Source: Candidatus Falkowbacteria bacterium (GTDB lineage Bacteria > Patescibacteriota > Patescibacteriia > UBA11705). Taken from it: a DNA stretch of 64,000 nt. The position numbers were made by a program, and so were the translations under genes. The stretch spans positions 2,046 through 66,045 of the forward strand of contig DOZJ01000003.1 in assembly GCA_003518055.1 (NCBI GenBank), read 5' to 3'. The notes beneath the pieces were generated by a model. The model did no database searches and was not told the DNA's origin. It worked only from the letters and a program-made list of their open reading frames with translations. Below, in pieces: positions 18,500 to 57,795 of the stretch. Numbering within the stretch: position 1 is the first letter of the stretch; the number at the start of each line of letters is the position of its first letter.

Positions 18500-18830
18500 T
18501 TGGTGGGGTAACAATAACTACCGAAGTTTGGCGGTCGGATGTTGGTTTTTTACAAAAATTAGACAGGGGTAACTGGAATGGCGGAAGTAAAGAGTAAAGA
18601 GCGAATAATAAAAATGGCGTAACTGTAACTACGGAATTAACTGTAACTACGGAAGTTTGGCAAGTCGGTTGGGTTTTTTACAAAAGTATGGCAGCAACAA
18701 TAACTACCCACCTACGCTCTTACTGTGTAGAAAGCTACGGCGCCTGCCTGCCGGTAGGCAGGGGCGCGGCGGAAGTTTGGCGGATGGGGAGGCAAAAGTT
18801 TGGCTATAACAATGAAAGTTTGATGATTTT
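18500..18830. repeat. Intergenic repeat cluster: copies of the ~28-nt GTAACTGTAACTACGGAAGTTTGGCGG family plus a ~130-bp segment duplicated at 45370-45500
   Basis: ggggtaacaataactaccgaagtttggcgg, gcgtaactgtaactacggaattaactgtaactacggaagtttggcaag. Also ...ggcagcaacaataactacccacctacgctcttactgtgt...gcctgcctgccggtaggcaggggcgcggcggaagtttggcgg, nearly identical to 45380-45500. Confidence 0.7.
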
Positions 18831-23693: not shown

Positions 23694-26600
23694 ATGATTC
23701 ATATGAAAAAAACAAACAGGCGATCGCGTTCGAATCATAATTTGTTGATCGCGTTTTTAATGGTTTTTATTCTTGGCACAACAGGGTATCTAACTTTGAT
23801 AAAACCTTTGGCGGTTAAAGCCGGGACATCGCCGCTTCTTATCAGTGAGGTGAAGTTTACGGGTGAAGTTGGCGGGAATTATGTTGAATTGTATAACCGC
23901 TCTGGCAGTGCCCTGTCAACGGAAGAAAATGTAGGCGTTCAATACAAGTTTCCCAGCGGCGAGTGGACTAATTTACACGTGGCATTCAGTAATGAATCAA
24001 TCCCAGCCAGTGGATTTGTTTTGTTTGGAACAGCGGGCGGTGACTTAGCTTTTGCCGATGAGGCCGCGTTTAATACCGCTATGGCCGCGAATAATAATTC
24101 CATTAACGGACTTAGTTTACGTTTGTGCGCTATATTAAGCAGTTGTGTCGATGGTAATTTGCTTGATGTCGTGGGTTTTGGTTCAAGCTCCACCACTGAA
24201 GGAACCGCAATCAGCCTCACAGATTGGGACCCGAGCAAAAGTTTTGAACGTAAGGCGATTTTTGATTCGACGGTTGGCGCTATGATTGCCGGTGGCGAGG
24301 ATGAAACGGCCGGAAATGGTTTTGATTCCGATGATAATAATTGGGATTTTGTGATGCAATCGACGGGCAATCCGCAAAATTTATCCAGCGCGGTTGAATC
24401 TTTGGATAACGCGGTATTTGAAGATGTTGTTCCCTTTATAGATCATGGACAGGTTTTCAGTTATCATGATAATGCGGATTTGTATTTGTTTGCCGCCATC
24501 TATGATGATAGTAATATTGCAACCACAGGAGCAAAAATATTTTATCGTGTCGGGACCAGCGGTGTTTTTACACAGGCTGACTCAACCAAAACCGTTGGGG
24601 CGTATGATCTGACAGGGTCTGCCTGGTATGCTTTTGTTATTCCCCAAGCAAGTTTGCAAAGCGCTGTTTCCGGGGGCGGAGTAGTCCAGTATTATCTTCA
24701 GGTGACCGATGGCGAAAATACAGCAACAATGCCGGATTACAATCCCAGCACCACGCCATTTAATATTGGCGTGACGGATGACTATGCCGGAGTTAAGTCA
24801 TTTTCCGGGGTGATAACCGATAGTCAGTTGAATTTTGTAAGGGCTTTGGTGCTTATAGAGAATTCAGGGTTTTATGCTGTTTCAAGCGCTGAGAATGGGG
24901 CTTACAGTTTCAGCAGTTTGCCAACTTCATATGAACCTGATGGGGCTTATCGGGTGATAATGGTGGCGCCAAATTATAGCTCTGCAATGGTAAGCGGCAT
25001 GAATGGATCTACGACTGTGAACGCGCAACTGCCGTTGTCATATGGGGATTTCGGTGGCGGAGACTTTGTTGGTCCTTATGTCAACTATACCGCTCCGAAC
25101 GCGGAAATGTTTGGAGCCCCGGTGGCGATATGTAATTTAAATACATCCCCGGAATCTCTGCCTGCCGGAGTAAATTTTTGTTCACCTATAATGGTCGGTT
25201 TTTCTGAAGCAATGAATAGCGGTACGGTTAATACGACAAATGTGAAACTGTACAATTTTACGACCAGCGCTTATGTTGACAATTTAGGGATAACAGCTAC
25301 AGCCCAAGATAATGAGTTTCAGGTTTTTTCCACCACTCCCCTGTCCGTCAATACGACATACGCTTTGATTTTAACCACGGATGTTCGAGATCAAGCGGGA
25401 AATGCTTTGGTGGGAAATCGAAGTGACGGTAGTTATGAAATTACTTTTACGACGGGAGGGGCGGCTTTTACCGGTGGTGGTGGTCAAACCTTCGGTTCCG
25501 GTCAGTTCCAGCCACCGTTTGTGCGAACGGTCAGTCCGAATTCAGGATCTTTTAATATCGCCATGAACGCCAATGTGTTGGTTGATTTTACGACGGCCGT
25601 AAACGTTGAAAGCGCCAACTTGGCTCGGGTTAATTTGGTCGATTTGGATTCGTCTGAGGTTGTGAGCTTGACTCGCACCTACAGCAACGATAAAACAAAA
25701 ATTATTTTAAATCCGAATTCAACTTTATCAGCTAATCAAGACTATGAAATTCGAGTTGCGGGCTCTTTTGAAAGTAGTGTCGGAGTGACGTTGGGAGATC
25801 CGCAAAACAGTCAGAATACGGATGACTACGTTTTCTTCCGCTCGTCGTTTACCACCGGTTCAACTTTAGATTCAACCGGACCGAGAGTTTTGGGCACGCT
25901 TCCGGCATCAGCTCAGACTGATGTGGCTGTGGGTTTGGGTTCGATTGAGATTGGCGTAAGCGAATCTCTTGATGCGGCGACAGTTAATACGTCAAATGTC
26001 ACCTTTAAACGAGGGAGCACGAATATTGCCGCCGATATCGAGTACGATGAAGCGTCTAAAACAATTCGATTGTTCCCTTCCAGCGCGTTGACGGCCAATG
26101 CCAGTCATACTGTAGCCGTCAAAACCGATGTGACTGATATCAATGGCAATGCTTTTAACAGTGATAATGACGGTACAAATGGTGAAGTTGATGATATTTA
26201 TACTTTTCAATTCACGACTTCCAGTACAATTGAAACAACCGCTCCGACGGTAACGAATGTCCGGTGCGATGATTATCAGTGTGTCGTGACATACAGTGAA
26301 GCGATGAATCGAGTGACAGTGACAGATACAACCGATTGGGTTGATAGTGTGGGAAAATGGGAAACCAGCGTCTTGAATAGGCTTAATTATAGTATTTCCG
26401 TTGATAAAGGGGCTGGATTGGCTACCGTGGACATAACAGAAGCGACTTTTAAATATGATGGTAATACCAATAGCGTAATTATATCCAATTTAAGGTTATA
26501 TGAAGATGTGGTTGATCTTAACAATCCGGTTCCATTAACTTTGTCGGTTTATAATGCGGCCGGCCCGGCTGATGGCGTGAGAGATATTGTCGGAAATGTC

Positions 26601-29600
26601 ATTGCCGCTTCAATCAGTATTAGCGGTACAGTTGAATCTAGCGCTCAAACCCAAGGTTTCATCGGGCCGGGCGCGACCGGGTTTGGCACGTCAGGCGTGA
26701 GCGATTTTGGAATGCATAGCGCGGCTACCATGGGCGAGAAACCAATTGGAGTTTTTCCGATGAATTCACTGGCCGGTGTAACCTCTCGCTATTTTGTTGA
26801 TTTGCCTGTGACCACGGTTATTCCGAACGGTGGAAAAATTGAATTAACATTCCCCAATGGATTTGATATTACAAATGCGGTGATTGATACCAACAGTCCG
26901 ATGAATAATGATATATCTCGCGGTTCTTCCACCATGACTTTGTCTTGCGTGGGAACTCAAGCAACGAGAACCATTACCTGTACGACTACCGGTGCTTCTG
27001 ATGCCAATGATTATTTATCTTTTGAATTAAAAACTATAATTAATAGTTCTATTCCCAAAGATTTCAACACTTCAGGTTATACGGTTGATGTTAAAACCAA
27101 GTCGGCTGATGGTTTGACTCTGTTGGAATCAATGACGACCATGCCGTTTTTCGTCACCGCGGCCGGATCCAATTCTATCACGGTCAAAGTTTATGCCGGC
27201 GGTCAGCTCGATGCCACCACCGGTACGGATGATATTGATGATGTAACCATGAATTTGTTTGTCGGTTCCCCCATGACCGGTCCCATGGATCAAACGATTA
27301 CTTTTACTAACGGCTATGCGACAACAACGATCAGTAATTTACCCGCCGGCGAATACTTTGTCTTTACCGAGCCATCAATGACAATTGGCGCCAACGAATA
27401 TGTCGGGGTGTCACCGGAGCAATTTTCACTAAATAACAACGTTACCAAGTCATTTTCGTTGAGTAAAATGGATAATTCAACGGCGGCGCCGCTGACAGTC
27501 AAGATTACCGGGGCCTTTGGCGAGACTGAAGATATTGATATTTTCGCCGGTAGTTCCAAGGGCTTTGTGGTCAAAACAATCAGTGATATCGGGACCGTAA
27601 CAAATCAGTCTTATACATTATATTTGCCTTACAACAGCGATTGGAGTATCGGTCTCGGGCCGGCAATGCCGAAAGGCGCAATCAGCGGTCAAGTCGCCAT
27701 GCCCGATTGGATGCCGCCGAAAAATAAAATGGTTCGAGTGACCGGCGTGGGCGAGACAGTCGCTTTGACCAATATGGAAACGCAGGCTGATGTTACCAGT
27801 GCTGGAGTCTCATTTACGGTGGCCTCTGCCGATTATCAAATTAACGGTTCGGTGGTTGACGGCAATGATCAAGGAATCGCTAACGCGGAGCTGTGGGCTT
27901 ACCAACCAATGGGTTTTGGCGGCAGCGGTAATAACACTCGAGCGACAACCGGCGGCAACTTCTCATTGAAGGTAGCGGAGTATGGAACGTACAAAGTAGG
28001 CGCCTTTTTACCTGGTATTCCCCAATCACCGGAATTAACATTGGAGGTAAAAGTTAACACCGGCGCCATTGATGGTAACGCCTCAGCGGATGTTTATCTA
28101 AACGGGACATTGATAACCGCTGGTAGTCCGTTTAAAATAAAATTAAGGAAAGCTGATTACACCATATCGGGTAAAGTGACGGATTCCAGCAACAATCCAA
28201 TGCAATACGCGCCGATTTGGGCCGAGGAATCCACCACGAAACAGACGGTTAACGCCATGACCGATTCCAGCGGAAATTATGTGCTTTATGTCGGTAATGG
28301 TACTTGGGTTGTCAGATCGGCGGTGCCTTTCGGTTCCAATATTTGCGGCAGTCTGACTAAAACGGTGACAATTTCCAGCGCATCCAAATCCGGTCAAAAT
28401 TTGCAACCATCATCAAGCACTTGTTACACTTTGAGCGGAACCGTGACTATTGGCGGATCGGTTGTTACCGGCGCCCCGGTGTTTATCGATGAATGGTCAG
28501 GGACGCTGGCGAGCGGTAATCCAATCGGGGTTTTTAGAGACTCGCGAACAGATTCCGCAGGACAATATTCGACACGAATTTCGAACGGCACATATCGCGT
28601 TGGGACTTGGTCAGAGGATTATGGCGAGCGGGCTATTTTAGTCACGGTTAATGGCCAGGATTCAACGGCAAATCATATCACTGTAGAGGTGGCTGATTTA
28701 AAAACATTGACCGTTAATTTTACCGGTGGCGCCAGCGACATGACTGGTTTCATGGAGGTGCGGAACGCCACAAGCACTGAACGCCGCGGTCGTCCGATCA
28801 ATGATTTATCGAATGCTGAAATTATTCAAGTTAGCGCCGGGACTTATAATGTATTTGTTCATATTGACGGTGTGGGTGACTTTAGCCAAAGCAGCGTTGA
28901 TTTAACCGCTAACGCCGTTATTACATTCAATGTGTCATCAGTGACTCGATTTGGCATTACAGGCACGGTCGAGGATGTTGATGGCAATCCGATCGAAAGC
29001 GCTTGGGTTTGGGTTCATGATCCAAATAGCAATTATAGAACAGGAGCAGCGACCAACTCGTCTGGCGCTTATACTTTGAGTGTAAAGGAAGGTTCAGGGA
29101 TGAAAATCGGTGTTGATAAACCGAATTATGTCTCCCCTGCCCCCAGAACATTAAACGTCACTGAAGCGGCTACGATAGATTTTACCGACGCTGAGAATGC
29201 CGCTTTGACCGCGACGAATTATGTGGTTTCTGGTACGGTGACGGGAACGAATTTGACTGAGGGTTTTGTGTGGGCGGAAACCGCTACGGGTGGTTGGTCA
29301 GGTAGTCCGATTGATTTGGACGGAACCTTTTCATTGCCGGTGACAAACGGAACGTGGACACTCAAAGGTATTGCTCCGCTTCACGCGCAAACGACCTATA
29401 GTGGTTCGATAACGATTAATAATGACAGTGTAACCGGTTTAAGCTTTCCTTTGACGGTTGATGTCACGAAGACAGTCAAAACGGCCATAAATTCGATTAC
29501 TCCTTCTGTCGGTGGTGTCATTCAAGACGATACGGTAGGGGCAAAAGTCGTAGTACCACCGAATGCTTTAGGCAGCGGATCGACGTCAGGAAATATGACA

Positions 29601-30647
29601 ATGCAAAAATCATATACGGCTCCGGCTACTGGCTTATACGCGCCGTTATCAGGTGAGTCAGTCAATATATCAGTTACCGATAACAATGGTCAGCAGATTA
29701 CCAATTTAAACGATGACGTGGAGTTGACTCTAGATTATTTGACTACAAGTTTACCGAGCGGAATTTCCGAAGGCGATTTGATTCCGGCTTATTGGGATAC
29801 TACAACAAATCAATGGATCCCGCTCAGCGGAGTGCAGAATTCGTCAGACAACTCATTTACAGCTCAAACCAATCACTTTACCATTTTTGGTGTGGTTTAT
29901 TCCCCGCTGTCAGTAACGACAGCATCTGGCAGCAGTCGATCCAGCCAGGAGGCGTCACAAGAGCTTGTTGATTCGATAACCGGTGATGGCTCTGGTAGTT
30001 CGACATCGATTCCGGCGACTGAAGAAACGACAGAGCCGGAAACCGCAGAACCGGAGTTAATACCCGATGAGTCAGTAACGGAAACACCTGAGACGTCCGT
30101 GGAAGCTGAAGAAGAGATGGTGAAAACATATACCCCGGATTTACCGGCAGAGCGTGATTTGGATAATGAACGAGACGCCATAAGTCGATATATCAGTTTG
30201 GAGAAAGAATTACCAACTGGTGATGACTGGAAGGTTGTCCAATTCATCAGCTACGGAAGTACGTCTGTGACTGAAGTTTTGACGACTCGGGAGCGTTCTG
30301 GTTTAGTATCTGATTATAAGGATTTGTACGGCCATTTACCGGTGACCGAGACTGATTGGAAGGATATAGATTTGATTGCTCGCGGTGAACAACCGACCCG
30401 GATTTTGACGCTTGAGGCATCAGCTATCAAGGAATTCGTAATGATTTATGGTCGATTGGTCAATTTTCAGACAGCAGCAGATGAGGATTTTATTCATATG
30501 GTGGCTTATCGCTATCGAGTGGAACAACGCGATTTGGCCAGGGAAAATACGGCTTTGGGCATATTTTCTAAGGCTTATGGTCATCTGCCCAATTCAACCC
30601 ACTTTTGGTCGGTATTGAGAGCTATATCCTATGCTAACGTGGAATAA
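23694..30647 (+). CDS. Giant (2317-aa) N-anchored surface protein with an LTD, bacterial Ig-like and carboxypeptidase-regulatory-like repeats, and the same C-terminal domain as 21033-23210
   Basis: Signal-anchor LLIAFLMVFILGTTGYLTLI. LTD LLISEVKFTGEVGGNYVELYNRSG...SFERKAIF...NGFDSDDNNWDFV. Many ~90-aa beta-rich repeats (e.g. ...NTSNVTFKRG...DINGNAF..., ...YTISGKVTDSSNNP...DSSGNYVLYV...). Acidic T/E linker. C-terminus ...FWSVLRAISYANVE. Confidence 0.6.
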   Translation: MIHMKKTNRRSRSNHNLLIAFLMVFILGTTGYLTLIKPLAVKAGTSPLLISEVKFTGEVGGNYVELYNRSGSALSTEENVGVQYKFPSGEWTNLHVAFSNESIPASGFVLFGTAGGDLAFADEAAFNTAMAANNNSINGLSLRLCAILSSCVDGNLLDVVGFGSSSTTEGTAISLTDWDPSKSFERKAIFDSTVGAMIAGGEDETAGNGFDSDDNNWDFVMQSTGNPQNLSSAVESLDNAVFEDVVPFIDHGQVFSYHDNADLYLFAAIYDDSNIATTGAKIFYRVGTSGVFTQADSTKTVGAYDLTGSAWYAFVIPQASLQSAVSGGGVVQYYLQVTDGENTATMPDYNPSTTPFNIGVTDDYAGVKSFSGVITDSQLNFVRALVLIENSGFYAVSSAENGAYSFSSLPTSYEPDGAYRVIMVAPNYSSAMVSGMNGSTTVNAQLPLSYGDFGGGDFVGPYVNYTAPNAEMFGAPVAICNLNTSPESLPAGVNFCSPIMVGFSEAMNSGTVNTTNVKLYNFTTSAYVDNLGITATAQDNEFQVFSTTPLSVNTTYALILTTDVRDQAGNALVGNRSDGSYEITFTTGGAAFTGGGGQTFGSGQFQPPFVRTVSPNSGSFNIAMNANVLVDFTTAVNVESANLARVNLVDLDSSEVVSLTRTYSNDKTKIILNPNSTLSANQDYEIRVAGSFESSVGVTLGDPQNSQNTDDYVFFRSSFTTGSTLDSTGPRVLGTLPASAQTDVAVGLGSIEIGVSESLDAATVNTSNVTFKRGSTNIAADIEYDEASKTIRLFPSSALTANASHTVAVKTDVTDINGNAFNSDNDGTNGEVDDIYTFQFTTSSTIETTAPTVTNVRCDDYQCVVTYSEAMNRVTVTDTTDWVDSVGKWETSVLNRLNYSISVDKGAGLATVDITEATFKYDGNTNSVIISNLRLYEDVVDLNNPVPLTLSVYNAAGPADGVRDIVGNVIAASISISGTVESSAQTQGFIGPGATGFGTSGVSDFGMHSAATMGEKPIGVFPMNSLAGVTSRYFVDLPVTTVIPNGGKIELTFPNGFDITNAVIDTNSPMNNDISRGSSTMTLSCVGTQATRTITCTTTGASDANDYLSFELKTIINSSIPKDFNTSGYTVDVKTKSADGLTLLESMTTMPFFVTAAGSNSITVKVYAGGQLDATTGTDDIDDVTMNLFVGSPMTGPMDQTITFTNGYATTTISNLPAGEYFVFTEPSMTIGANEYVGVSPEQFSLNNNVTKSFSLSKMDNSTAAPLTVKITGAFGETEDIDIFAGSSKGFVVKTISDIGTVTNQSYTLYLPYNSDWSIGLGPAMPKGAISGQVAMPDWMPPKNKMVRVTGVGETVALTNMETQADVTSAGVSFTVASADYQINGSVVDGNDQGIANAELWAYQPMGFGGSGNNTRATTGGNFSLKVAEYGTYKVGAFLPGIPQSPELTLEVKVNTGAIDGNASADVYLNGTLITAGSPFKIKLRKADYTISGKVTDSSNNPMQYAPIWAEESTTKQTVNAMTDSSGNYVLYVGNGTWVVRSAVPFGSNICGSLTKTVTISSASKSGQNLQPSSSTCYTLSGTVTIGGSVVTGAPVFIDEWSGTLASGNPIGVFRDSRTDSAGQYSTRISNGTYRVGTWSEDYGERAILVTVNGQDSTANHITVEVADLKTLTVNFTGGASDMTGFMEVRNATSTERRGRPINDLSNAEIIQVSAGTYNVFVHIDGVGDFSQSSVDLTANAVITFNVSSVTRFGITGTVEDVDGNPIESAWVWVHDPNSNYRTGAATNSSGAYTLSVKEGSGMKIGVDKPNYVSPAPRTLNVTEAATIDFTDAENAALTATNYVVSGTVTGTNLTEGFVWAETATGGWSGSPIDLDGTFSLPVTNGTWTLKGIAPLHAQTTYSGSITINNDSVTGLSFPLTVDVTKTVKTAINSITPSVGGVIQDDTVGAKVVVPPNALGSGSTSGNMTMQKSYTAPATGLYAPLSGESVNISVTDNNGQQITNLNDDVELTLDYLTTSLPSGISEGDLIPAYWDTTTNQWIPLSGVQNSSDNSFTAQTNHFTIFGVVYSPLSVTTASGSSRSSQEASQELVDSITGDGSGSSTSIPATEETTEPETAEPELIPDESVTETPETSVEAEEEMVKTYTPDLPAERDLDNERDAISRYISLEKELPTGDDWKVVQFISYGSTSVTEVLTTRERSGLVSDYKDLYGHLPVTETDWKDIDLIARGEQPTRILTLEASAIKEFVMIYGRLVNFQTAADEDFIHMVAYRYRVEQRDLARENTALGIFSKAYGHLPNSTHFWSVLRAISYANVE

Positions 30648-34370: not shown

Positions 34371-34600
34371 AAAGTTAGATTGTCAGATGTGAATTAGGGT
34401 GTAACTATAACTACGGAAGTTTGGCGGGGTAACTGTAACGGCGGAAGTTTGGCGGGGTAACTGTAACTACGGAAGTTAGGCGGGTGTAACTGTAACTACG
34501 GAAGTAACTATAACTACGGAAGTTAGGCGGGGGTAACTGTAACTACGGAAGTAACTGTAACTACGGAAGTTAGGCGGGGTAAGTTAAGGTTTATTTAAGT
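34371..34600. repeat. Tandem array of seven or more directly abutting ~28-nt units, (G)GGTAACTGTAACTACGGAAGTT(T/A)GGCGG
   Basis: ggtgtaactataactacggaagtttggcgg / ggtaactgtaacggcggaagtttggcgg / ggtaactgtaactacggaagttaggcgg / gtgtaactgtaactacggaagtaactataactacggaagttaggcgg / gggtaactgtaactacggaagtaactgtaactacggaagttaggcgg. There are no unique spacers. Confidence 0.8.
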
Positions 34601-35134: not shown

Positions 35135-35295
35135 GGCTAATCAAGCTGAGAAATTCATTGGCACATTGGCATTCATATATAAGACATTTGGATCTTTTTG
35201 TTGAGGGGTAACTGTAACTACGGAAGTATTACTACTAACGTTTTTACATTCATATAGTATATCGCTTGTCGTGATATTATATATAAAGACACCTC

Positions 35296-44385: not shown

Positions 44386-45186
44386 TTGAACGACATTATG
44401 ATTGTATTTGCGGCGGTGGTCCCCCACCCGCCATTAATCATTCCCAGCTTGGGAAAAGATAATACAAAAAAATTGACTAAAACTCAAGAAGCTTTTGAAA
44501 TTTTAAAAAAAGAATTTGAGGCGGCTAAACCTGATACGGTTGTAATATTTTCACCGCATGGAGATATATATCCGGATGCGTTTACCATCAATACTTTGCC
44601 TGAATATGAGTTGAATTTTGAAGATTTCGGCGACTTTGAAACTCGGATGAATTTTGTCGGTGACCTAGGATTGATCAATCGATTCCGGGAACAAGTGGAA
44701 ACTACCCTACCGGTGGTGTTAAAATCAGAGTCGGTGCTTGATTATGGCGTGGGCATTCCATTGTATTCTCTCGCTCAGGCATATAAAAATTTCAAAATAA
44801 TGCCGATAAATTCTTCCTTACTTGACCTCGAACAGCATTTGAATTTTGGCGAGGAATTGAAAGAAGCGATATTTTCAAGTGAAAAAAAGGTGGCGATAAT
44901 CGCCTCAGCTGATTTGAGTCATCGGCTGTCAAAAAATGCTCCAGCCGGGTTTTCACCGAAAGCCAAGGATTTTGATAAAAAAATTATTCAGTATTTGAAA
45001 CAAAAAAAAGTAGATCAGATGATCCAATTCGATTCCCAGCTGCTCAAGGAGGCCGAAGAGTGCGGGTTGAGACCGATTATGATGTTGATGGGAGTGATTA
45101 GGAATATGAATTATGATTTTCAGGTTTTGAGTTATGAGTCGCCTTTTGGGGTGGGATATTTGGTGGGAGAGTGTTTGTTGAAGTAA
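44386..45186 (+). CDS. LigB-superfamily protein (class III extradiol dioxygenase subunit B-like / MEMO1-like)
   Basis: N-terminal ...IVFAAVVPHPPLIIP... and ...VVIFSPHGD... histidine motifs typical of PF02900-like folds. 266 aa. Confidence 0.45.
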   Translation: MNDIMIVFAAVVPHPPLIIPSLGKDNTKKLTKTQEAFEILKKEFEAAKPDTVVIFSPHGDIYPDAFTINTLPEYELNFEDFGDFETRMNFVGDLGLINRFREQVETTLPVVLKSESVLDYGVGIPLYSLAQAYKNFKIMPINSSLLDLEQHLNFGEELKEAIFSSEKKVAIIASADLSHRLSKNAPAGFSPKAKDFDKKIIQYLKQKKVDQMIQFDSQLLKEAEECGLRPIMMLMGVIRNMNYDFQVLSYESPFGVGYLVGECLLK

Positions 45187-45545
45187 CTGTAACTACGAAA
45201 GTTTGGCAGCAAGTAGATAGTTTTACGAAAATTAGGCGGGCGTAACTGTAACTACGGAATTAACTGTAACTACCCGCCTACGCTCTTACTTCCACCTACG
45301 CATAACGCTTATGCCTTCGCTAAAGCTATGGCATACAGGTCGGTGGACAGGGTGTAGAGCTACGGCGGGCGCGGCGGAAGTTTGGCAAGTCGGTTGGGTT
45401 TTTTACAAAAGTATGGCAGCAACAATAACTACCCACCTACGCTCTTACTGTGTGAGCTACGGCGCCTGCCTGCCGGTAGGCAGGGGCGCAGCGGAGGTTT
45501 GGCGGGGATTGGTTGCGTAGGGTTAATTCAGGGAAAAGAAAGGCG
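45187..45545. repeat. Intergenic repeat cluster: GTAACTGTAACTAC family units plus a ~130-bp near-identical copy of 18640-18790
   Basis: aactgtaactacgaaagtttggcagc..., gcgtaactgtaactacggaattaactgtaactacccgcctacgctcttac..., ggcggaagtttggcaagtcggttgggttttttacaaaagtatggcagcaacaataactacccacctacgctcttactgtgtgagctacggcgcctgcctgccggtaggcaggggcgcagcggaggtttggcgg. Confidence 0.7.
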
Positions 45546-49596: not shown

Positions 49597-50367
49597 ATGT
49601 CAGATTACTACTCTATCCCCAGGGCGGCAAATTGGAATTTTGATCCGAAAAAGAAAAATAATTTCAAGCTTAGCCGATCAAAGCTAGATTTATACATGGA
49701 ATGTCCACGGTGTTTTTATTTGGATAATCGTTTGGGGTTGAAACGTCCGTCTGGATTCCCTTTTAACTTGAACAGCGCGGTCGATACGCTGCTGAAAAAA
49801 GAATTTGATATTCATCGAGCTAAAAGACAGGCTCATCCGTTAATGAAAAAATACAAAATTGAAGCTGTGCCAGCTGATCACGAGCAGCTGAATGTGTGGC
49901 GGGAAAATTTTCAGGGAATTACCTATGATCACAAAGAAACCGGTTTGAAGATCACCGGCGCTATTGATGATTTGTGGATTGATAAACAAGGCAAGTATAT
50001 CGTGGTCGATTACAAGGCAACCAGCAAAGATGAAGTCATTAAGGATATCAACAAACCGTGGCAGATCGGTTATAAACGACAAATGGAGGTGTATCAGTGG
50101 CTTTTGCGTCAAAATGGCTACAAAGTAGCCGACACCGGATACTTTGTCTATTGCAATGGTCGGACCGATCTTGAAGCCTTTGATGCCAAACTGGAATTTG
50201 ACATCAGTATTATCCCCTACCTTGGTAATGATTCGTGGGTGGAGCCGGCAATTATAAAGGCTTATAAATGTTTGAAAAGCAATACGCTGCCTAAATCAAG
50301 CAAAAATTGTGATTATTGCCGGTATCGAAGTGTCGTTAGTAAGGTTGAAGGTCATGGTAGCGTTTAA
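49597..50367 (+). CDS. Cas4-like PD-(D/E)xK nuclease (RecB-family fold; no CRISPR locus nearby)
   Basis: N-terminal Cys (YMECPRCFYLD); core ...GAIDDLWIDKQGKYIVVDYKATS... (D...D-x-K); C-terminal Cys cluster ...AYKCLKSN...KNCDYCRYRS, as in Fe-S Cas4/DUF83 nucleases. Confidence 0.6.
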   Translation: MSDYYSIPRAANWNFDPKKKNNFKLSRSKLDLYMECPRCFYLDNRLGLKRPSGFPFNLNSAVDTLLKKEFDIHRAKRQAHPLMKKYKIEAVPADHEQLNVWRENFQGITYDHKETGLKITGAIDDLWIDKQGKYIVVDYKATSKDEVIKDINKPWQIGYKRQMEVYQWLLRQNGYKVADTGYFVYCNGRTDLEAFDAKLEFDISIIPYLGNDSWVEPAIIKAYKCLKSNTLPKSSKNCDYCRYRSVVSKVEGHGSV

Positions 50368-50417: not shown

Positions 50418-50801
50418 ATGAAAAAATTAAACTGTTCATTGCGGCTCCCCTCTTGGGTTTACGGTGGTGTGATTAGTCTGGCAGTATTTTTAATGTTGTA
50501 TTATTTTAATAACATAATTCAAGATTGGAATTTGGCTGGACCGGTGGAGAGTTTTTTGGCCGTAATTGTCAGAGGCGGGCTTTTGGTTGTCATGATTCCA
50601 TTGTATATTTTGTTTAGTTATATTGGGTTTATTCTGGACGCGATTTTCCACACCGGAGTTGGATATGAATCTTTGGGTGTGTTTCCGGCCGGCGTTATGT
50701 TTATGAAAGCGGTAGGGCTGGTTTATTTTTTTACAGTCGGCGCGGTGGCGGTGGTTATTTATCGTAAGGTTTGGCCATCAATTCCCAAGAAATTAAATTA
50801 A
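50418..50801 (+). CDS. Hypothetical membrane protein (4 TM)
   Basis: 127 aa, hydrophobic. Confidence 0.45.
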   Translation: MKKLNCSLRLPSWVYGGVISLAVFLMLYYFNNIIQDWNLAGPVESFLAVIVRGGLLVVMIPLYILFSYIGFILDAIFHTGVGYESLGVFPAGVMFMKAVGLVYFFTVGAVAVVIYRKVWPSIPKKLN

Positions 50802-50984
50802 CTTTTTTGTTGTTTGCGTTGATAGAGTGATAATCTAAAAAGGGATGACAAGCTCTGTGGCTTAATGATGTAATCCAGCGGTTTTCAGGCTGGTGTTTTA
50901 TATATAAACAATGGCGGTTATTGACGTTATGAGTCGCCTATGTTAAGGTGATTTGTTGTAACTTGACAAAATAACGGAGGAAGC

Positions 50985-53078
50985 ATGAGCAACGAACACA
51001 AATATTTTTGGGAAGAAGCAGTGGCCATTTTACGACGATTGCGGATTCGCACCAAACAAAAATATTTTGAACTTTGCAACATTGATAATCGATTTTCTCG
51101 AACCCCGGGATCTTTTTATCGTGACTGCTGGGTGGAAAAGGGTAAATGGCCCGGTTTCTTGGGATTCAAACCGTTTCGGACTGAGAAAACCAGTTACGTC
51201 ACGTGGGAAGAAGCAGCTGTCGCGGCCAGAAAATTGGGGTTTGCTACTGCGGATGATTATAAATTAGACTATGAAACAGATCCCAAATTGCACTCAAGCC
51301 CGCAAAAACTTTATAGATATGTATGGAAGAAAAATGGTGGCTGGCCCGGCTTTTTGGGTACAATCGGCAAAAAGAAACGAAAAAAATTTTACGCTACTTG
51401 GGCTGAAGCGTCAGCCGCTGCTCGGCGGTTAAAATTCAAAACCATTCGAGAGTATGTTAACGGTCGGAAACAAGATCCACGACTTCACTCTAAACCAAAC
51501 AAACTATATGCGGCTGAGTGGAAATCGAATGGCGGTTGGAAAGGATTTCTTGGAAATTCAGGCATAAGAAAACGACAGGATATTTATCCTACGTGGAATC
51601 TCGCTTCAGCTGCAGCCAAAAAACTGGGAATTAAACGAAGTGAAGATTATAGTAAAGTGTATAAAAAAGACCCCAAGCTGCCGGGCAACCCCAATCTCGC
51701 TTATGAGGATGTTTGGCAGAAGAATGGACGCTGGGCCGGATTCTTGGGGACAAGGACAAAACCTAATCCGGATGAAAAATACGCGACTTGGGAAGAAGCA
51801 TCGGCCGCTGCCAAAAAAATTGGGTTTATTTCGACTGATGATTATAACCAGCGATTTGCTGAAACTGATCCGAAATTGCCGGGAAAACCAAGTGACAAGT
51901 ATCGGAGTGTTTGGAAAAAAAACGGCCGTTGGATCGGTTACCTTGGTTTAAAAATGGTTTCACCCATCCGCGGTCATAAATATGTTACTTGGCATGAAGC
52001 ATCTAAGGCCGCTCAAAGATTAGGCATCAAAAATGGAATAGAATACAAACGTCGATACAAAAGTGATCCAAAGCTGCCGCTGAAGCCGGCCCAATTGTAT
52101 AAGATTGAATGGAAGAAGCGCGGCAGCATGGCTGGTTTTCTGGCACGAATATTTTCATATGTCAGATGGGAAGAAGCATCGGCCGCCGCTCGAAAATTGA
52201 ATATTCGGACCATCAAAGAATATCAGAAAAAACATTGTTTGGATCCACGATTGCCAAGCAATCCGGCCCATACTTACAAATCTGTCTGGGTGAAAAAAGG
52301 TCTTTGGCTGGGATTCCTCGGCAAAACTAAGGTGGAAAAATACGCTACTTGGGATGAGGCGGTGAAGGCGGTTAGACGATTAAGAATTACGTCATGCCGC
52401 GATTATCAAAATCGATACCGTTGTGACCCGAAGTTGCCGGTCAGACCATATATAAATTACAGAAACGTTTGGGTTTTGCTCGGTAAGTGGAGTGGTTTTA
52501 TCGGTCGGAAATCTCATTTTTATTCGACTTGGCAGGAAGCGTCAAAGGCCGCGATTGCTTTGGGCATCAAGACTCAAAAAGAGTACAAACAGAATTATTG
52601 GGATGATCCAAAATTACCAAGCACTCCAGATGTGGTTTATCAATCGTTGTGGAAAGTTAATGGCGGTTATTGGGGGTTTTTGGGTAAAACAAAGAAATAT
52701 CAATCTTGGTCAGAAGCGGCAAAAGCGGCGCGCAGTCTAAAAATCAGGAATAATCAAGAGTACAAAATAAAATACAAGTTGAATCCGAAATTACCGGCCT
52801 GTCCGGATCATTATTATAAAAATGATTGGAAAAGAAATGGCTGCTGGAACGGATTCCTCGGATTGACGCCAAAAAAATATTATGACACATGGATTGAAGC
52901 GTCGACTGCGACGATAACATTGGGAATTAAATATCAGCAAGAATATCGTCAACGATACAAACAAGATCCCCGGCTTCCGCCTAGCCCGGATTTAGTTTAC
53001 AAGGATGTCTGGGTTGATAACGGGCGCTGGCTGGGATTTCTCGGCCGGACAAATAGAATATTGAAAGCTCGCAAATAA
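50985..53078 (+). CDS. Basic 697-aa protein built from ~11 tandem ~60-aa repeats, consensus Y-x-T-W-E-E-A-S-x-A-A-R-K-L-G-I-K-T-x-x-E-Y-x(4)-K-x-D-P-K-L-P-x-x-P-x(3)-Y-x(3)-W-K-K-N-G-G-W-x-G-F-L-G
   Basis: Repeats visible by eye, e.g. YVTWEEAAVAARKLGFATADDYKLDYETDPKLHSSPQKLYRYVWKKNGGWPGFLG; YATWEEASAAAKKIGFISTDDYNQRFAETDPKLPGKPSDKYRSVWKKNGRWIGYLG; YQSWSEAAKAARSLKIRNNQEYKIKYKLNPKLPACPDHYYKNDWKRNGCWNGFLG. Confidence 0.55.
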   Translation: MSNEHKYFWEEAVAILRRLRIRTKQKYFELCNIDNRFSRTPGSFYRDCWVEKGKWPGFLGFKPFRTEKTSYVTWEEAAVAARKLGFATADDYKLDYETDPKLHSSPQKLYRYVWKKNGGWPGFLGTIGKKKRKKFYATWAEASAAARRLKFKTIREYVNGRKQDPRLHSKPNKLYAAEWKSNGGWKGFLGNSGIRKRQDIYPTWNLASAAAKKLGIKRSEDYSKVYKKDPKLPGNPNLAYEDVWQKNGRWAGFLGTRTKPNPDEKYATWEEASAAAKKIGFISTDDYNQRFAETDPKLPGKPSDKYRSVWKKNGRWIGYLGLKMVSPIRGHKYVTWHEASKAAQRLGIKNGIEYKRRYKSDPKLPLKPAQLYKIEWKKRGSMAGFLARIFSYVRWEEASAAARKLNIRTIKEYQKKHCLDPRLPSNPAHTYKSVWVKKGLWLGFLGKTKVEKYATWDEAVKAVRRLRITSCRDYQNRYRCDPKLPVRPYINYRNVWVLLGKWSGFIGRKSHFYSTWQEASKAAIALGIKTQKEYKQNYWDDPKLPSTPDVVYQSLWKVNGGYWGFLGKTKKYQSWSEAAKAARSLKIRNNQEYKIKYKLNPKLPACPDHYYKNDWKRNGCWNGFLGLTPKKYYDTWIEASTATITLGIKYQQEYRQRYKQDPRLPPSPDLVYKDVWVDNGRWLGFLGRTNRILKARK

Positions 53079-53128
53079 ATCTTGCGGGTTTTTTAATCAA
53101 AAAACCGGCGCTAAGCCGGTTGTCTGGG

Positions 53129-53626
53129 TTATCTGGCAATCAGAAATTTACGTTTATTATCGCTCAGATTCATGAAGTCATCGGCGGCCTCAATTAACTT
53201 GGCACTGGTTGATTCTTTGAAGGCGACCACTTCTACGCGGCAGCCGGTGGTGTTCTGAAGATATTCAATCAATGGGACATAATCACCGTCACCCGAAACC
53301 AAAATGATCACATCCAAGCTTTTGGCCAGTTTAATGGCGTCGACGGCAATACCGACGTCCCAATCGGCTTTTTTGCTCCCATCGGGAAATATTTGCAGGT
53401 CTTTGGTTTTGACTTCATAGCCTGATTTGGCCAGAGCGTCAAAAAATTTCCCCTCGGCGCCCTCAAGTGTGGCTATGCCATAAGCAATGGCTCGGATCAG
53501 TTTTCGATTGCCGACCGATTCGGTTAGAATATTACCAAAGCTGACTTTTTTCTTGTATAAGGCTTTGGCGCTGTAATAAAGATTTTGAATGTCGACGAGC
53601 ACGCCGACGCGTTGGTCTTGATACAT
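53129..53626 (-). CDS. NYN-domain (LabA-like, PIN-related) protein
   Basis: ...VGVLVDIQNLYYS... and ...VIILVSGDGDYVPLIEYL... are the conserved NYN/LabA acidic motifs. Confidence 0.7.
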   Translation of the reverse strand: MYQDQRVGVLVDIQNLYYSAKALYKKKVSFGNILTESVGNRKLIRAIAYGIATLEGAEGKFFDALAKSGYEVKTKDLQIFPDGSKKADWDVGIAVDAIKLAKSLDVIILVSGDGDYVPLIEYLQNTTGCRVEVVAFKESTSAKLIEAADDFMNLSDNKRKFLIAR

Positions 53627-53711: not shown

Positions 53712-55220
53712 TTAAGATGATTTTTGGTGTGTCTTTTCGGTTGGAGATTGACTAAATAATTGTAGCACAGCTGTTAGAAATATGATATATCCGATTCCGA
53801 GCGGATGGTTCAGATATGGACTGAATGCGTGGACGGTTGAAAGAAAAATTAAACCAAGCAAAAAACCGTACAATAACCAAGCATTGTCTTGGGTTGATGT
53901 CCGGATCAATGACCAGGTTTTTTTGCCGATTGATATCAATAAACCAAGATAAATGAATAATCCAAAGAGGCCGATTTTCAAGATAATATCAAGATAGCCC
54001 CACTCAAAAGCATAAGTAGTGTATTCGCCGGTGGGATTTTTTTCAAGCACCCGGGGATCAAGACTGGTATAGGTGACGGTTGAGCCAAAACCGGAGCCGA
54101 TAACCGGATGGGTGGTCAAACTTTTAGCTAGGTTCGGTAATTGACTCCACCGGCTGGAAACGGCTGATTCGTTGAGGTTGATTCTATCTTTGAGCATTTC
54201 ACTCGGGTTAATTGCCGGTAGATTGGGCCAAGGAAAATAGATGACGGCCAGAAGCGCGGCCACGCTGACGATCAAGATACCCATAAGGTTTATGATCAGA
54301 CCCGCTCCCCGTTTAATTTTATGTTTATTGAGGTATAAAAAGATAATGAGAAAAATAAACCCGGTTAAAAGTAGTCCAACCCAATTGCTGCGGGAGAGAT
54401 TTAAGATTGAAACCGCTGTAAGCGCGATGATGGCGATATATGGTAACAGGTTGGATTTTGTTGGCCGCAGTTGGCTGTTAATTAAAAACAAGAGCGATAA
54501 AATTATAAAAAAACCAATACCGGTGTAAATGTGGCTTTGAAAAAAAATGCGGTAAAAACTGCCTGACAACAAGGTAATCTCCCCTATTCCTGTGTCCCTA
54601 ACCCAGCGATAGACCGGTTTAATGGCGCTGAAATTATGAGAAAAATAATAAAGCAAGCCCATACTTTTGAGCACGGTCCAGGCAATACCGGCTGAAATAA
54701 CGGAAATCAGCGGTTTTAACGTATCTTTTGATGTCAAACCATCGACGGCAGGCCCAAGATAAAGGAAAAACAACCAAGCATTGAAATCAGAATAAATGTT
54801 GATTAAACCATTATGTCTGATTAAACCAAAAATCAAGCTCCACAGAACGACAAAGCCTAGAATCAGGAACCACTTGAAATTAAAAACAGAAAAAATATTA
54901 GTTCGACGGAAACGAACTAGGCCGACACACCAAGCAAGGATTATCGCACAAAAGATTCCAAGGCGAATGCCAATTTCCTGATTGGCAACGATTAAATTGA
55001 ACAAATGGCCTTGAGAACCGATGGTCAGTTCAGAAAACGCGATCATTAACCCGAGTGGTAGCCGGTATAATGATAAACCAAAGGTGATGAGAACAATTAG
55101 AATGAACAGGGTGTTTCCCAATATGTTGTTGTCATTGGCAATAAAAGAAAACACTTCAAAGATAAAAAAAAGCGGCAGGCACCATAAAAACCATTTTGAC
55201 GAGAAAAAAATATTTTTCAT
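53712..55220 (-). CDS. O-antigen ligase / Wzy-like polysaccharide polymerase family membrane protein
   Basis: ~12 TM segments with a large external loop near the C-terminus. Start taken at MKNIFFSS (55220). Adjacent to GT2 and GT4 genes. Confidence 0.5.
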   Translation of the reverse strand: MKNIFFSSKWFLWCLPLFFIFEVFSFIANDNNILGNTLFILIVLITFGLSLYRLPLGLMIAFSELTIGSQGHLFNLIVANQEIGIRLGIFCAIILAWCVGLVRFRRTNIFSVFNFKWFLILGFVVLWSLIFGLIRHNGLINIYSDFNAWLFFLYLGPAVDGLTSKDTLKPLISVISAGIAWTVLKSMGLLYYFSHNFSAIKPVYRWVRDTGIGEITLLSGSFYRIFFQSHIYTGIGFFIILSLLFLINSQLRPTKSNLLPYIAIIALTAVSILNLSRSNWVGLLLTGFIFLIIFLYLNKHKIKRGAGLIINLMGILIVSVAALLAVIYFPWPNLPAINPSEMLKDRINLNESAVSSRWSQLPNLAKSLTTHPVIGSGFGSTVTYTSLDPRVLEKNPTGEYTTYAFEWGYLDIILKIGLFGLFIYLGLLISIGKKTWSLIRTSTQDNAWLLYGFLLGLIFLSTVHAFSPYLNHPLGIGYIIFLTAVLQLFSQSPTEKTHQKSS

Positions 55221-55648
55221 ACTATTTCCGGTAGATAGAGTTTGTACAAGCGGTGATCCAGATCGTCGGACATGAAGTATGTGAATGGTTCGAGGTCGGC
55301 TTGCAGGCTTTTGTCTATGACCGGGTGGTCTTTGACATTCCCCAAAGCGATGTCGATAATTAATTGGTTGTCTTGAAGCCAAAGATGATCAATGTCATGA
55401 TGATAAAAATATCCGGACTGGATGTACAGCCGATGATTAGAGCCTCTGTTTATGTATCGGCGCAAATCATCAAGCAAGCTTTCAAGATTAACAGATATAA
55501 CCAAAGATTCGATCACTCGCCCCCGATGAAATCCCGCGCCGGATTGCTCCAGAAGGAATTCCTCCACCAGATTTTTTAGCCGCATAAAATCAATGGCCGG
55601 CGAAATTACCTTTATTATTGGAGTGATTTTTTTGTGAAGTAATATCAT
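55217..55648 (-). CDS. Hypothetical 143-aa protein
   Basis: ORF between the ligase-like gene and the GT2 gene; start taken at MILLHKK (55648). Confidence 0.35.
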   Translation of the reverse strand: MILLHKKITPIIKVISPAIDFMRLKNLVEEFLLEQSGAGFHRGRVIESLVISVNLESLLDDLRRYINRGSNHRLYIQSGYFYHHDIDHLWLQDNQLIIDIALGNVKDHPVIDKSLQADLEPFTYFMSDDLDHRLYKLYLPEIV

Positions 55649-55653
55649 ATTGG

Positions 55654-56541
55654 TTACAGTTTTGATTGAGTGCGCGGTTTTATTTTTAATAGTTGAACGA
55701 TATAGGCGAGAAAAAGGCTGATCGGCGACAGTATGAGCAGCAGCAGGTATTGCGGCCATGGGCGGTATTTTTTGAAAAAGATAAGCATGCCGGTGATAAA
55801 TCGTCGTTGTTTCGGCAGAGATGATTTTTGTTCGAAACTTTTGCCTTCAAAGTGAAAGACTTCGGAAAGCGGAACGTAACGAATCTTTTGCCCCTTTATG
55901 GTCAAATTGTAACACAGATCAACATCTTCCCACCAGATGGGATACTCTTCATTCCAACCGTCAAGCAGACGAATAACTTCAGCGCGAATAAAAACAAAGG
56001 CGCCCATAATTTGGTCCACCTCAGATTCTTGCGTATAGTCAAAATCTTTTCTGAGATATTTTTTTAGGCATTTGGGTTGGAATAAATGATGTAGTTTGAG
56101 TAGGATCAAAACTTGATCGCAAATAGTCGGGTTGGTTTTGATATTGGGCTGGGTGGTCCGGTCGCCATAAAGCAGTTTGGTGGTGCAGGCGGCGATGTCG
56201 CGATGGGAATCCATATACTGTTTCAATTTGAAGACGGTATTTTCGGTGAATTCCATGTCGGGATTCATAAATAAAGTATATTCCCCCTTTGCTTCTTTCA
56301 AACCCTGATTATTGGCCTTGGCAAATCCCAGATTTTGGCGATTCTCAATGATAAGCAGTTGGCCGGTTTGAATCTGGGGCTGAAATTGGCGGCGTAAATA
56401 TTCGGTTGAACCGTCGTTTGATGCATTATCCACAATAATCACTTCAAAAGTAATATTTTCCGTAAATTTAAAAATCGTTTCCAAACACTTTAGTAGAAAT
56501 TCCCGAACATTCCAATTTACGATGATAATCGAGACATCCAT
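55654..56541 (-). CDS. Family 2 glycosyltransferase
   Basis: MDVSIIIVNWNVREFLLKCL...EVIIVDNASNDGS... (GT-A DxD region). Confidence 0.75.
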   Translation of the reverse strand: MDVSIIIVNWNVREFLLKCLETIFKFTENITFEVIIVDNASNDGSTEYLRRQFQPQIQTGQLLIIENRQNLGFAKANNQGLKEAKGEYTLFMNPDMEFTENTVFKLKQYMDSHRDIAACTTKLLYGDRTTQPNIKTNPTICDQVLILLKLHHLFQPKCLKKYLRKDFDYTQESEVDQIMGAFVFIRAEVIRLLDGWNEEYPIWWEDVDLCYNLTIKGQKIRYVPLSEVFHFEGKSFEQKSSLPKQRRFITGMLIFFKKYRPWPQYLLLLILSPISLFLAYIVQLLKIKPRTQSKL

Positions 56542-56580
56542 AGAATTTGAAACCAGTATCGACTGCCGACAGTGGTGTTT

Positions 56581-57795
56581 TTATGATTTTTCGTTTAAAT
56601 ATGAATCAACCAGACTCATCATTTTATCAACGCGTGCCTGCCAGGTGTGAGACTTGATTAGATTTTGACGGTTTAAGACTTGTTGAGGTGAGTTGTCCTT
56701 GAGCGCCCGGTTGATAAGATCACTAAAGGCGTTAGCATCGGAAGCGGTTTTTATATCATTCGGAAAAAGCTCGGTGCCGGCCACTGGCGTGCTGACAATC
56801 GGTTTGCCGGCAGCCAAATATTCATACAGCTTCATCGGGTTCATAGATTCGACAAACGCTGATTGACGATGCGGCATGATGGCGACATCAAACCGGTGAA
56901 GATAAGCCGGCAGCAAGCGGTAATCAACGCGGCCGGTCAAAATGACATTGGGTAGGTCGGCAATCTTTTTATCCCAAGCTTTTTTGACTGCAGCCCAAAT
57001 CGGACCGCAGACAATGAAAGTTTTTTCCGGATTTAATTTTACAACGGCGGCGAATAGGTCGAGGTCAAAGCGGCCTTCAATGGTACCAACATAACCGATA
57101 AAGGGTCCTTTTTTATTATCGATAATCGTTGGCTGCGATATTAATTTCGGATCAATAAAATGGTCAAAATCAACGCCGTTAGGGACCCAATAAACATGGT
57201 CTGACCGGTCGTTTTGATGGAAAAAATCCTTCATGGCGGATGAAACCGTGAAGATTAAGTCAGCTTTGGCGGCGATGGTTTGATATTTGTCGGTTAACTT
57301 TTTGCGGCTCATCAGCTTTGAATAGGCGGTGTGCTCCAACCAATTGTCAACCGTATCGAAAACAAAAAGTTTTTCATCCAATCGGCCAATAAATTCGGTG
57401 AACATCGGATTATATGACCAAAAAATAATATTATTTAAATTGAGAGATTTTTTGACCCGATTCAATTCTCTAGCGACAATTTTCCAGGAGAAATTATTAT
57501 CAATCGTTGAGTAAACGTAAAGATCAGGTGCTTGGCGGAAGCAGGCGCTGGTCAAGTCGCCGTAGATCATTTCGCCGTTTTTAACACCGGTAAGAATGTT
57601 TTGAATATAATGTTTAACGGTTTTTTTGAGGCCGATGGGGAAAAAATCAACGCTGACAATTCTCTCGACGTTTGGGTGCCGGAGCAAAGCATTTAAAATA
57701 AAATAATTGCGATTGACAATCCCCCGGTGCCAATCTGACATCGTGGACATGTTAAACATGACTATATCGAATTTACTTTGATCGGATTTTAACAT
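56581..57795 (-). CDS. Family 4 (GT-B, RfaG-like) glycosyltransferase
   Basis: C-terminal GT1/GT4 domain ...GYVGTIEGRFDLDLF...IVCGP...E(x7)E-like ...MKLYEYLAAGKPIVSTPV. Confidence 0.65.
   Translation of the reverse strand: MLKSDQSKFDIVMFNMSTMSDWHRGIVNRNYFILNALLRHPNVERIVSVDFFPIGLKKTVKHYIQNILTGVKNGEMIYGDLTSACFRQAPDLYVYSTIDNNFSWKIVARELNRVKKSLNLNNIIFWSYNPMFTEFIGRLDEKLFVFDTVDNWLEHTAYSKLMSRKKLTDKYQTIAAKADLIFTVSSAMKDFFHQNDRSDHVYWVPNGVDFDHFIDPKLISQPTIIDNKKGPFIGYVGTIEGRFDLDLFAAVVKLNPEKTFIVCGPIWAAVKKAWDKKIADLPNVILTGRVDYRLLPAYLHRFDVAIMPHRQSAFVESMNPMKLYEYLAAGKPIVSTPVAGTELFPNDIKTASDANAFSDLINRALKDNSPQQVLNRQNLIKSHTWQARVDKMMSLVDSYLNEKS

Follow-up and report, generated by a model that had tools for sequence, protein, structure and literature searches.

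A stand-alone array of eleven INT_rpt (PF14882) units in a Candidatus Falkowbacteria genome: family identity, predicted fold and a possible role in DNA binding

In this work we have analysed a window of 64,000 nucleotides from Candidatus Falkowbacteria (contig DOZJ01000003.1 of assembly GCA_003518055.1, positions 2,046 to 66,045 of the forward strand), which contains on its plus strand, at 50985..53078, an open reading frame (ORF) with an ATG start that encodes a protein of 697 amino acids. The protein consists of an array of 11 integrase repeat units (INT_rpt, Pfam PF14882) followed by a ten-residue basic tail. A Shine-Dalgarno-like GGAGG can be read in the sequence at 50976..50980 on the same strand, 4 nt 5' of the ATG, and, with an intact frame, this putative ribosome-binding site and a dN/dS (ratio of nonsynonymous to synonymous divergence) of ~0.2, the ORF looks like a real gene under selection. 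Its GC content is 0.433, compared to 0.425 for the window. An earlier sequence-only reading of this DNA had proposed a 697-aa protein of about 11 tandem repeats of about 60 aa; the ORF is exact, the 11 units are 59-66 aa long and span residues 1-687, and the Pfam model independently recognised 11 stretches.

The borders of the units were set by their G[FY][LI][GA] anchors, at residues 60, 125, 190, 255, 321, 387, 446, 507, 567, 626 and 687. Unit 1 (aa 1-60; 50985..51164, all units being on the plus strand) is the most divergent one and is orthologous to unit 1 of a second Falkowbacteria protein that is described below. It is followed by unit 2 (aa 61-125; 51165..51359), which has a linker of 10 aa, and by unit 3 (aa 126-190; 51360..51554), which has the K/R-rich linker TIGKKKRKKF. 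Units 4 (aa 191-255; 51555..51749), 5 (aa 256-321; 51750..51947) and 6 (aa 322-387; 51948..52145) are best matched by units 2, 3 and 4 of that ortholog, respectively, and unit 6 carries a degenerate anchor, GSMAGFLA. Units with short linkers begin with unit 7 (aa 388-446; 52146..52322) and continue with units 8 (aa 447-507; 52323..52505), 9 (aa 508-567; 52506..52685), 10 (aa 568-626; 52686..52862) and 11 (aa 627-687; 52863..53045). The C-terminal tail, RTNRILKARK (53046..53075, plus strand), is basic, whereas that of the ortholog is acidic instead (...DDEWEIWEEE). Linkers of 10-11 aa in the first six units versus 4-6 aa in the last five suggest that the array is composed of two blocks with different histories.

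A relaxed signature, W-x3-G-x3-G[FY][LI][GA], occurs 11 times in the protein, compared to a mean of 0.0 in 2,000 shuffled sequences. The stricter W-x3-G-x-W-x-GFLG is exact in 7 of the 11 units, with substitutions in units 5, 6, 8 and 9, so that the recurrence of the signature in every unit stands but its description as invariant was slightly overstated. The motif DP[KR]LP-x2-P is also exact in 7 of 11 units. The protein had further been described as very basic, aromatic-rich and devoid of a signal peptide, and this agrees with an isoelectric point (pI) of 10.06, a content of 13.2% K, 7.6% R, 4.7% W and 6.7% Y, and a maximum 19-aa Kyte-Doolittle mean of 0.37, which indicates that there is no hydrophobic segment and no export signal.

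The match to PF14882 ('Integrase repeat unit', earlier PHINT_rpt) reached 434.2 bits against a cut-off of 26.5 bits (E = 3.7e-133), and the protein is a full member of this curated family and not a new class. The sequence-only reading had made no confident family assignment, and the repeat has turned out to be the Integrase-repeat that it had itself named for checking. INT_rpt was matched by all 142 single units taken from the protein and its homologs (alignment A2), in which conservation is 90% or higher in the columns Y..EA..A..L, Y, DP.LP..P, Y...W and W.(G)FLG; another alignment, A1, had diverged too far to serve for the design of patterns. The Pfam model is ~20 residues out of phase with the structural unit, its positions 1-35 matching the second half of the unit. 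The structural register runs from Y-x-T-W-E-E-A to G-F-L-G, as the protein starts and ends on it and the model confidence dips after GFLG. No other domain of the protein scored above the Pfam threshold apart from a marginal match to PaaX_C (24.5 bits, 0 independent stretches), which overlaps the first helix of one unit and was treated as spurious. In particular, Pfam detected neither Integrase_2 nor Phage_integrase in it, the name of the family stemming from its association with integrases and not being a criterion for membership. Relatives of this kind are named 'integrase repeat-containing protein' at NCBI, and NCBIfam holds no specific model for the repeat, the only match there being a sub-threshold one to CedA.

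The family, with 3-17 units per protein, is large. A profile search of 1.84 billion representative proteins, clustered at 50% identity, gave 4,820 clusters at E <= 1e-3, a number that falls to 759 if E <= 1e-30 is required. The top matches contain 4-17 units per protein, so the 11 units found here are a high number but no record, and proteins of 380-700 aa that consist only of arrays of 6-12 units were already present in public databases. A metagenome scan with the 697-aa protein itself found no relative, and a scan of IMG/VR with a consensus di-unit gave no match. Among 50,697 GenBank phage records there was one weak match, and INT_rpt was found on nine plasmids, either as GmtZ/VPA1269 or as 'integrase repeat-containing protein'. 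In the PDB no sequence relative was recovered for the whole protein or for a three-unit profile. Matches of a single-unit profile to the designed toroids dTor_12x31L and dTor_9x31L are artefacts, since they sum a 16-residue helix motif with an i-Evalue of 600-900 per stretch, and its matches to SRP9 (E ~0.4) are noise. None of the defence families of PADLOC-DB is matched by the 697-aa protein. According to the sequence-only reading, a clear hit to a well-characterised repeat family of known function would make the array ordinary; the family is indeed curated and named, but no functional or structural study of INT_rpt was found in the literature, the only earlier mention that we found being its listing among the repeat families without known structure (PMC8078820).

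In order of abundance, three architectures make up a set of 121 proteins (the 697-aa protein and 120 homologs). In 85 of them, many from Patescibacteria/Parcubacteria, a superfamily 2 (SF2) motor of the ResIII/DEAD/Helicase_C type is followed by a C-terminal array; 23, mostly from Gammaproteobacteria, carry an N-terminal array and Integrase_2 with or without Phage_integrase and are the GmtZ/VPA1269 integrases belonging to Gamma-Mobile-Trio (GMT) islands; and 13, the protein studied here included, consist of the array only. The motors of the helicase-fused relatives have as best PADLOC matches those of type IV methyl-directed and type I restriction enzymes (E = 1e-35 to 1e-54), and only the motor part of these relatives matches restriction-enzyme models. 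In some of the helicases an HA domain (PF03457) is inserted between motor and array. A single member, P0132, has an N-terminal Mrr_cat nuclease, a ResIII/Helicase_C motor and a C-terminal INT_rpt array, and from its sequence it looks like a single-chain nuclease-translocase restriction enzyme with the repeat array as its target-recognition part; in this layout the array takes the usual place of a target-recognition domain in such enzymes. An Integrase_2 (PF13009) or tyrosine-recombinase catalytic region is present in P0015, P0121, P0124 and P0126. GmtZ is required for the excision and site-specific insertion of GMT islands, as stated in passages of the preprint that do not mention the INT_rpt repeats (bioRxiv 10.1101/2023.03.28.534373).

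Most of these arrays are basic, with a pI above 9 in 92% of the array-only and 80% of the helicase-linked proteins, and with a net charge of +7 per unit the protein studied here ranks 4th of the 121. The conserved K/R columns lie within and after the second helix. Compared to the family as a whole, it is an array-only member like those already known, with a number of units near the top of the array-only range and among the most basic arrays, and it comes from a Falkowbacteria-like genome of the candidate phyla radiation (CPR). The arrays most similar to it are those of the SF2 helicases (P0002, 45% identity over 496 aa), which belong to the same superphylum and are basic as well, but the array of the 697-aa protein starts at residue 1 and has no motor domain. 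Many GmtZ/VPA1269 proteins carry 3-17 N-terminal units that are 35-42% identical to those of the 697-aa protein, which in contrast lacks the Integrase_2 and Phage_integrase catalytic domains; no gmtY or gmtX homolog was found among the window genes scanned, and the gene is located in a housekeeping region of the chromosome and not in a mobile island.

When units were modelled, as the sequence-only reading had suggested, the unit came out as a small, all-alpha fold of high confidence. With aligned repeat segments of the protein and of its homologs as input, AlphaFold2 yielded a mean predicted local distance difference test (pLDDT) score of 92.6 and a predicted template modelling score (pTM) of 0.54 for a model of units 3 to 5 (aa 126-321), and of 90.4 and 0.68, respectively, for a model of one unit (aa 262-321 of unit 5). 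The predicted unit has helices of 10-11 residues at positions 8-18 and 23-33 with a four-residue turn between them, and a second half with the DP(K/R)LPxxP loop, two very short helices and a last helix over W-x-GFLG. High pLDDT, modest pTM and the dips at the linkers suggest that the units would be separately folded domains on short tethers. As an observation apart, which we have not used as evidence, a Foldseek comparison of the three-unit model with viral structures (BFVD) had as best matches A0A3G4ZSX7, A0A2H4UVX6, A0A1V0SLK7 and A0A1V0SJG3, SF2/'ResIII' helicases of giant viruses (Terrestrivirus, Bodo saltans virus and Klosneuvirus), with sub-threshold values (E = 6e-3 to 0.1, probability 0.75-1.0); these model-based matches suggest that giant-virus SF2 helicases may carry a similar C-terminal repeat.

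The segment EA(S)xAAxxLGI(K/T)SxxEY, which comprises the first two helices and the turn, in our reading resembles the classical helix-turn-helix (HTH) pattern. In a permissive Pfam scan of the 142 single units, the non-self matches were mainly to HTH or other DNA-binding families, namely HTH_50 (3 units), NUMOD1, HTH_8 and HTH_23, together with further weak matches to HTH_28, HTH_17, HTH_22, HTH_7 and I-TevI_DNA-bd. As every one of these matches is individually insignificant, the resemblance is a lead and no demonstration. With the tandem HTH modules of NUMOD1/I-TevI, Fis or resolvase HTH and Myb/SANT, the unit shares the two predicted helices with a 4-residue turn, as well as these weak profile matches; the three further short helices and the conserved DP(K/R)LPxxP loop of INT_rpt are not known as features of those families. 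The HA domain, with ~60 aa, is likewise a short alpha-helical module; it follows the core of SF2 helicases, and some proteins contain both HA and INT_rpt. We have discarded that INT_rpt is a divergent HA domain, given that HA is a separate module in those proteins, that the hhalign probability is 0.5% and that the 697-aa protein has no HA match.

The repeats have diverged at the DNA level, as had been noticed from the letters: Tandem Repeats Finder detected no array of the unit period in the DNA, and the mean identity between units is 43% for protein, 51% for DNA and 38% at third codon positions. Pairwise identities range from 30 to 53%, with the variation scattered along the unit. This argues against a reader with a TALE-like code, which needs near-identical repeats that differ at few specificity positions. 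Between units the proportion of synonymous differences (pS) is 0.78, which is saturated, and that of nonsynonymous differences (pN) is 0.40; compared to the syntenic ortholog they are 0.71, also saturated, and 0.34, which gives the dN/dS of ~0.2, and the residues of the hydrophobic-core signature are retained in all 11 units. All these data show that the repeats are old and have been maintained by purifying selection on the protein, in agreement with the proposal of an old, selected architecture and no recent slippage.

The window is an ordinary piece of chromosome, with genes for PBP2, LysRS/AspRS-type and GluRS synthetases, ClpB, PriA, Def, Fmt, NUDIX proteins and glycosyltransferases, a uniform GC content and no Rfam RNA family. 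Its PriA shares 60% identity with the one encoded in a Candidatus Falkowbacteria metagenome-assembled genome (Patescibacteria/Parcubacteria group). Upstream of the repeat gene there is a gene for a PD-(D/E)XK, Cas4-like nuclease (49597..50367), separated from it by a gene for a 127-aa membrane protein (50418..50801). Downstream, after a gap of 50 bp, lies a convergent NYN gene on the minus strand (53129..53626), and within the gap a consensus scan alone gave a GC-rich hairpin (53103..53121), which is predicted as a terminator for the NYN gene and might serve both genes. The location between a Cas4-like and an NYN gene that had been pointed out from the sequence is correct, with the membrane-protein gene intervening, but it carries no functional signal, as shown by the following comparisons.

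The search for orthologs and neighbours, also suggested beforehand, identified a single syntenic ortholog, in a Falkowbacteria contig (L001, 18481..19488), with 335 aa, 5 units and the acidic tail. Its units 1-4 are best matched to units 1, 4, 5 and 6 of the protein studied here, the collinear parts being 52% identical, and downstream of it come, as in the window, the convergent NYN gene and the gene for a polytopic membrane protein. In this contig the repeat gene is set apart from the conserved gene for the small membrane protein by ~2.4 kb of extra small genes, and hence its position is a variable spot within conserved synteny. The PD-(D/E)XK gene is missing from the matching position downstream of fmt, where a different small ORF is found. 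The NYN proteins of the two Falkowbacteria share 93% identity, and the values are 58-73% across 80 metagenome loci of other Patescibacteria anchored on NYN. No frame of any of these 80 loci encodes an INT_rpt unit; 61 of the loci are informative, with 1 kb or more of sequence on the side in question, and because 0 of these 61 carry INT_rpt, the adjacency reflects shared ancestry in a narrow lineage and no functional pairing. Furthermore, there was no NYN neighbour beside any INT_rpt relative examined. This is a chromosomal, lineage-restricted gene whose number of units varies.

Variation was also found at close range. A groundwater contig (L093; SRR2177956, PRJNA292723) is 99.85% identical over 2,022 bp, with three single nucleotide polymorphisms (SNPs). 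One of them, A>T at window position 52323 (position ~1391 of L093), changes K447, the first codon of unit 8, from AAA to TAA exactly at the boundary between units 7 and 8. The stop splits the gene into an ORF of 446 aa and another that starts at a GTG and encodes units 8-11; this in-frame GTG lies 6 nt (two codons) past the stop, and with this placement two shorter arrays could still be formed in the variant. The other two SNPs (51304 and 51549) are both non-synonymous.

The contexts of the stand-alone relatives are mixed. In a metagenome locus (L005, 8001-15538) there are three consecutive INT_rpt genes, which encode an array-only protein of 564 aa, a helicase-INT_rpt protein of 893 aa and an INT_rpt protein of 530 aa, with 27 detectable units among them. 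Another stand-alone gene lies directly after a Phage_integrase gene, with overlapping stop and start, and is translationally coupled to it; one is located in a mobile-element-like region and two others have no evident partner.

From domain-fusion logic, the charge of the protein and the weak sequence resemblance to HTH families we infer DNA binding, an HTH character of the unit and any specific target that it may have, and with modest confidence we lean towards the protein being a multivalent DNA-binding array of small HTH-like domains, a free-standing counterpart of the targeting module of the helicases and of GmtZ. It would be a cytoplasmic, very basic protein in which each unit of ~55 aa folds independently as an alpha-helical domain, with two longer helices and a short LGI(K/T)S turn, and then three short helices around conserved Y/W/F/L residues. 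Each unit could contact DNA as an HTH-like module, with short and often K/R-rich linkers in between, and the array could function as an architectural or nucleoid-associated factor or, alternatively, as the free-standing form of a DNA-targeting module that restriction-type SF2 translocases and GmtZ integrases would be given in cis. Regarding the two functions guessed by the sequence-only reading, nucleic-acid binding is the better one, because the fusion partners of the repeat are all DNA enzymes, and the binding of peptidoglycan or teichoic acid lacks support, in the absence of an export signal and of SPOR, SH3b or KWG matches. The stand-alone relatives that adjoin a helicase-INT_rpt gene or a Phage_integrase gene, and hence enzymes of this kind, also speak for DNA binding.

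Several results weigh against this proposal. No direct evidence of DNA binding was found in the literature for any INT_rpt protein, and there is no solved relative in the PDB. Foldseek recovered no significant neighbour in the PDB, HTH or other, for the one-unit or the three-unit model, and the HTH-family matches have E values of 0.003-0.1 per unit with 142 units scanned. Among the 19 neighbouring and larger window ORFs scanned with Pfam there is no integrase, recombinase or SF2 helicase that could be a partner. The K447 nonsense codon in a near-identical strain indicates that the full-length array may be non-essential. Finally, ~35% of the GmtZ-linked arrays are acidic (pI < 7), which is hard to reconcile with generic binding to the DNA backbone and would suit a protein-protein role.

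The main rival is in fact a protein-protein scaffold or adaptor, in which the units would make no contact with nucleic acid and would recruit or oligomerise partner proteins, for instance the subunits of a helicase or recombinase. Protein binding is a frequent task of alpha-helical tandem repeats, and the acidic arrays, the lack of a DNA-binding fold among the Foldseek results and the cluster of three INT_rpt genes in L005, which could reflect hetero-oligomers, would all fit with this role. We consider it unlikely, though deserving attention, since strong basicity, together with K/R-rich linkers, characterises this protein and most arrays, the array takes the target-recognition position in the nuclease-motor-array layout, and the units are apparently separate small domains that form no continuous solenoid surface, as judged from the pTM of 0.54 and the pLDDT dips at the linkers. 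The very basic composition and the convergent NYN gene, both here and at the L001 locus, could also point to an RNA-binding array working with the adjacent NYN-domain ribonuclease. This is quite improbable: NYN is widespread and highly conserved at loci devoid of INT_rpt, the two genes are not co-transcribed because they are convergent, no INT_rpt relative examined adjoins an NYN gene and the fusion partners act on DNA.

A dispensable repeat expansion that drifts and has hardly any function today, or none, and that could be a leftover or offshoot of an array from a helicase or an integrase, would account for the restriction to one lineage, for the 11 versus 5 units of the orthologs, for the K447 stop accompanied by two non-synonymous SNPs, and for an evolution (52% identity to the ortholog) that is faster than that of the neighbouring PriA (60%) and NYN (93%). 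If anything it is less probable still, as an ORF of 2.1 kb has been kept intact despite a pS of 0.78 between units, with the core signature in 11 of 11 units, a dN/dS of ~0.2 and a strong ribosome-binding site, and the stop of the variant falls exactly at a unit boundary close to a GTG. As to cell-wall binding, to peptidoglycan or teichoic acid, the composition of basic tandem repeats rich in aromatic residues is similar to that of some wall-binding modules and there are envelope glycosyltransferase genes nearby, but this function is hardly credible for a protein with neither a signal peptide nor a transmembrane segment, with no match to SPOR, SH3b, LysM, KWG or CW_binding in Pfam or NCBIfam even at E <= 1, and with a family whose fusion partners are all cytoplasmic DNA enzymes.

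What our results mainly clarify is that the feature is real and already named. Its interest comes from the fact that the repeat is built into two DNA machines, the GmtZ integrase, which moves GMT islands laden with defence or toxin genes into specific sites, and the restriction-type helicases of genome-reduced Patescibacteria. If the array were their DNA-targeting part, a soluble stand-alone version with 11 units would be handy to approach the structure of the unit and its binding target. A broader view, which we regard as a long shot, is that the INT_rpt units would be small DNA-reading modules of a class with no solved structure, whose arrays would recognise long or repeated sites, set the site specificity of GmtZ and target the restriction-type translocases, free arrays being trans-acting specificity or architectural factors. 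Within that DNA-reading view, the target in this genome might be the dispersed intergenic motif GTAACTGTAACTACGGAA.

This 18-bp motif is present in 12 copies in the window (with up to 2 mismatches), all of them on the plus strand, compared to 0 expected by chance. The copies are clustered at 18619-18654, 34401-34568, 35208-35225, 45183-45200 and 45242-45259; the blocks at 34.4 kb and 45.2 kb, which were read directly, are intergenic, and in the largest one 7 copies are interleaved with GTT[TA]GGCGGG spacers. As it was found in none of the 93 fetched loci, the related Falkowbacteria contig included, the motif is a genome-specific dispersed repeat.

Some other features of the window were also observed. 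The PD-(D/E)XK protein (49597-50367) is a stand-alone one with a match to the PADLOC Cas4 model (E = 5e-11) and a C-terminal CxxC motif; the tandem-repeat scan of the window gave no CRISPR-like array and there was no Cas protein among the window genes scanned. A protein of 2,317 aa with Big_5 Ig-like and CarboxypepD_reg domains is encoded at 23694-30647 and presumably belongs to the giant surface proteins that are typical of CPR bacteria. Finally, genes for a polytopic membrane protein of 556 aa and for glycosyltransferases of the GT2 and GT4 types are located near the INT_rpt gene (53712-57795), and another Patescibacteria locus (L092, 3132-8908) has a Wzy_C gene and two GT4 genes immediately upstream of its helicase-INT_rpt gene; this shared proximity of INT_rpt genes to glycosyltransferase genes may be a coincidence.

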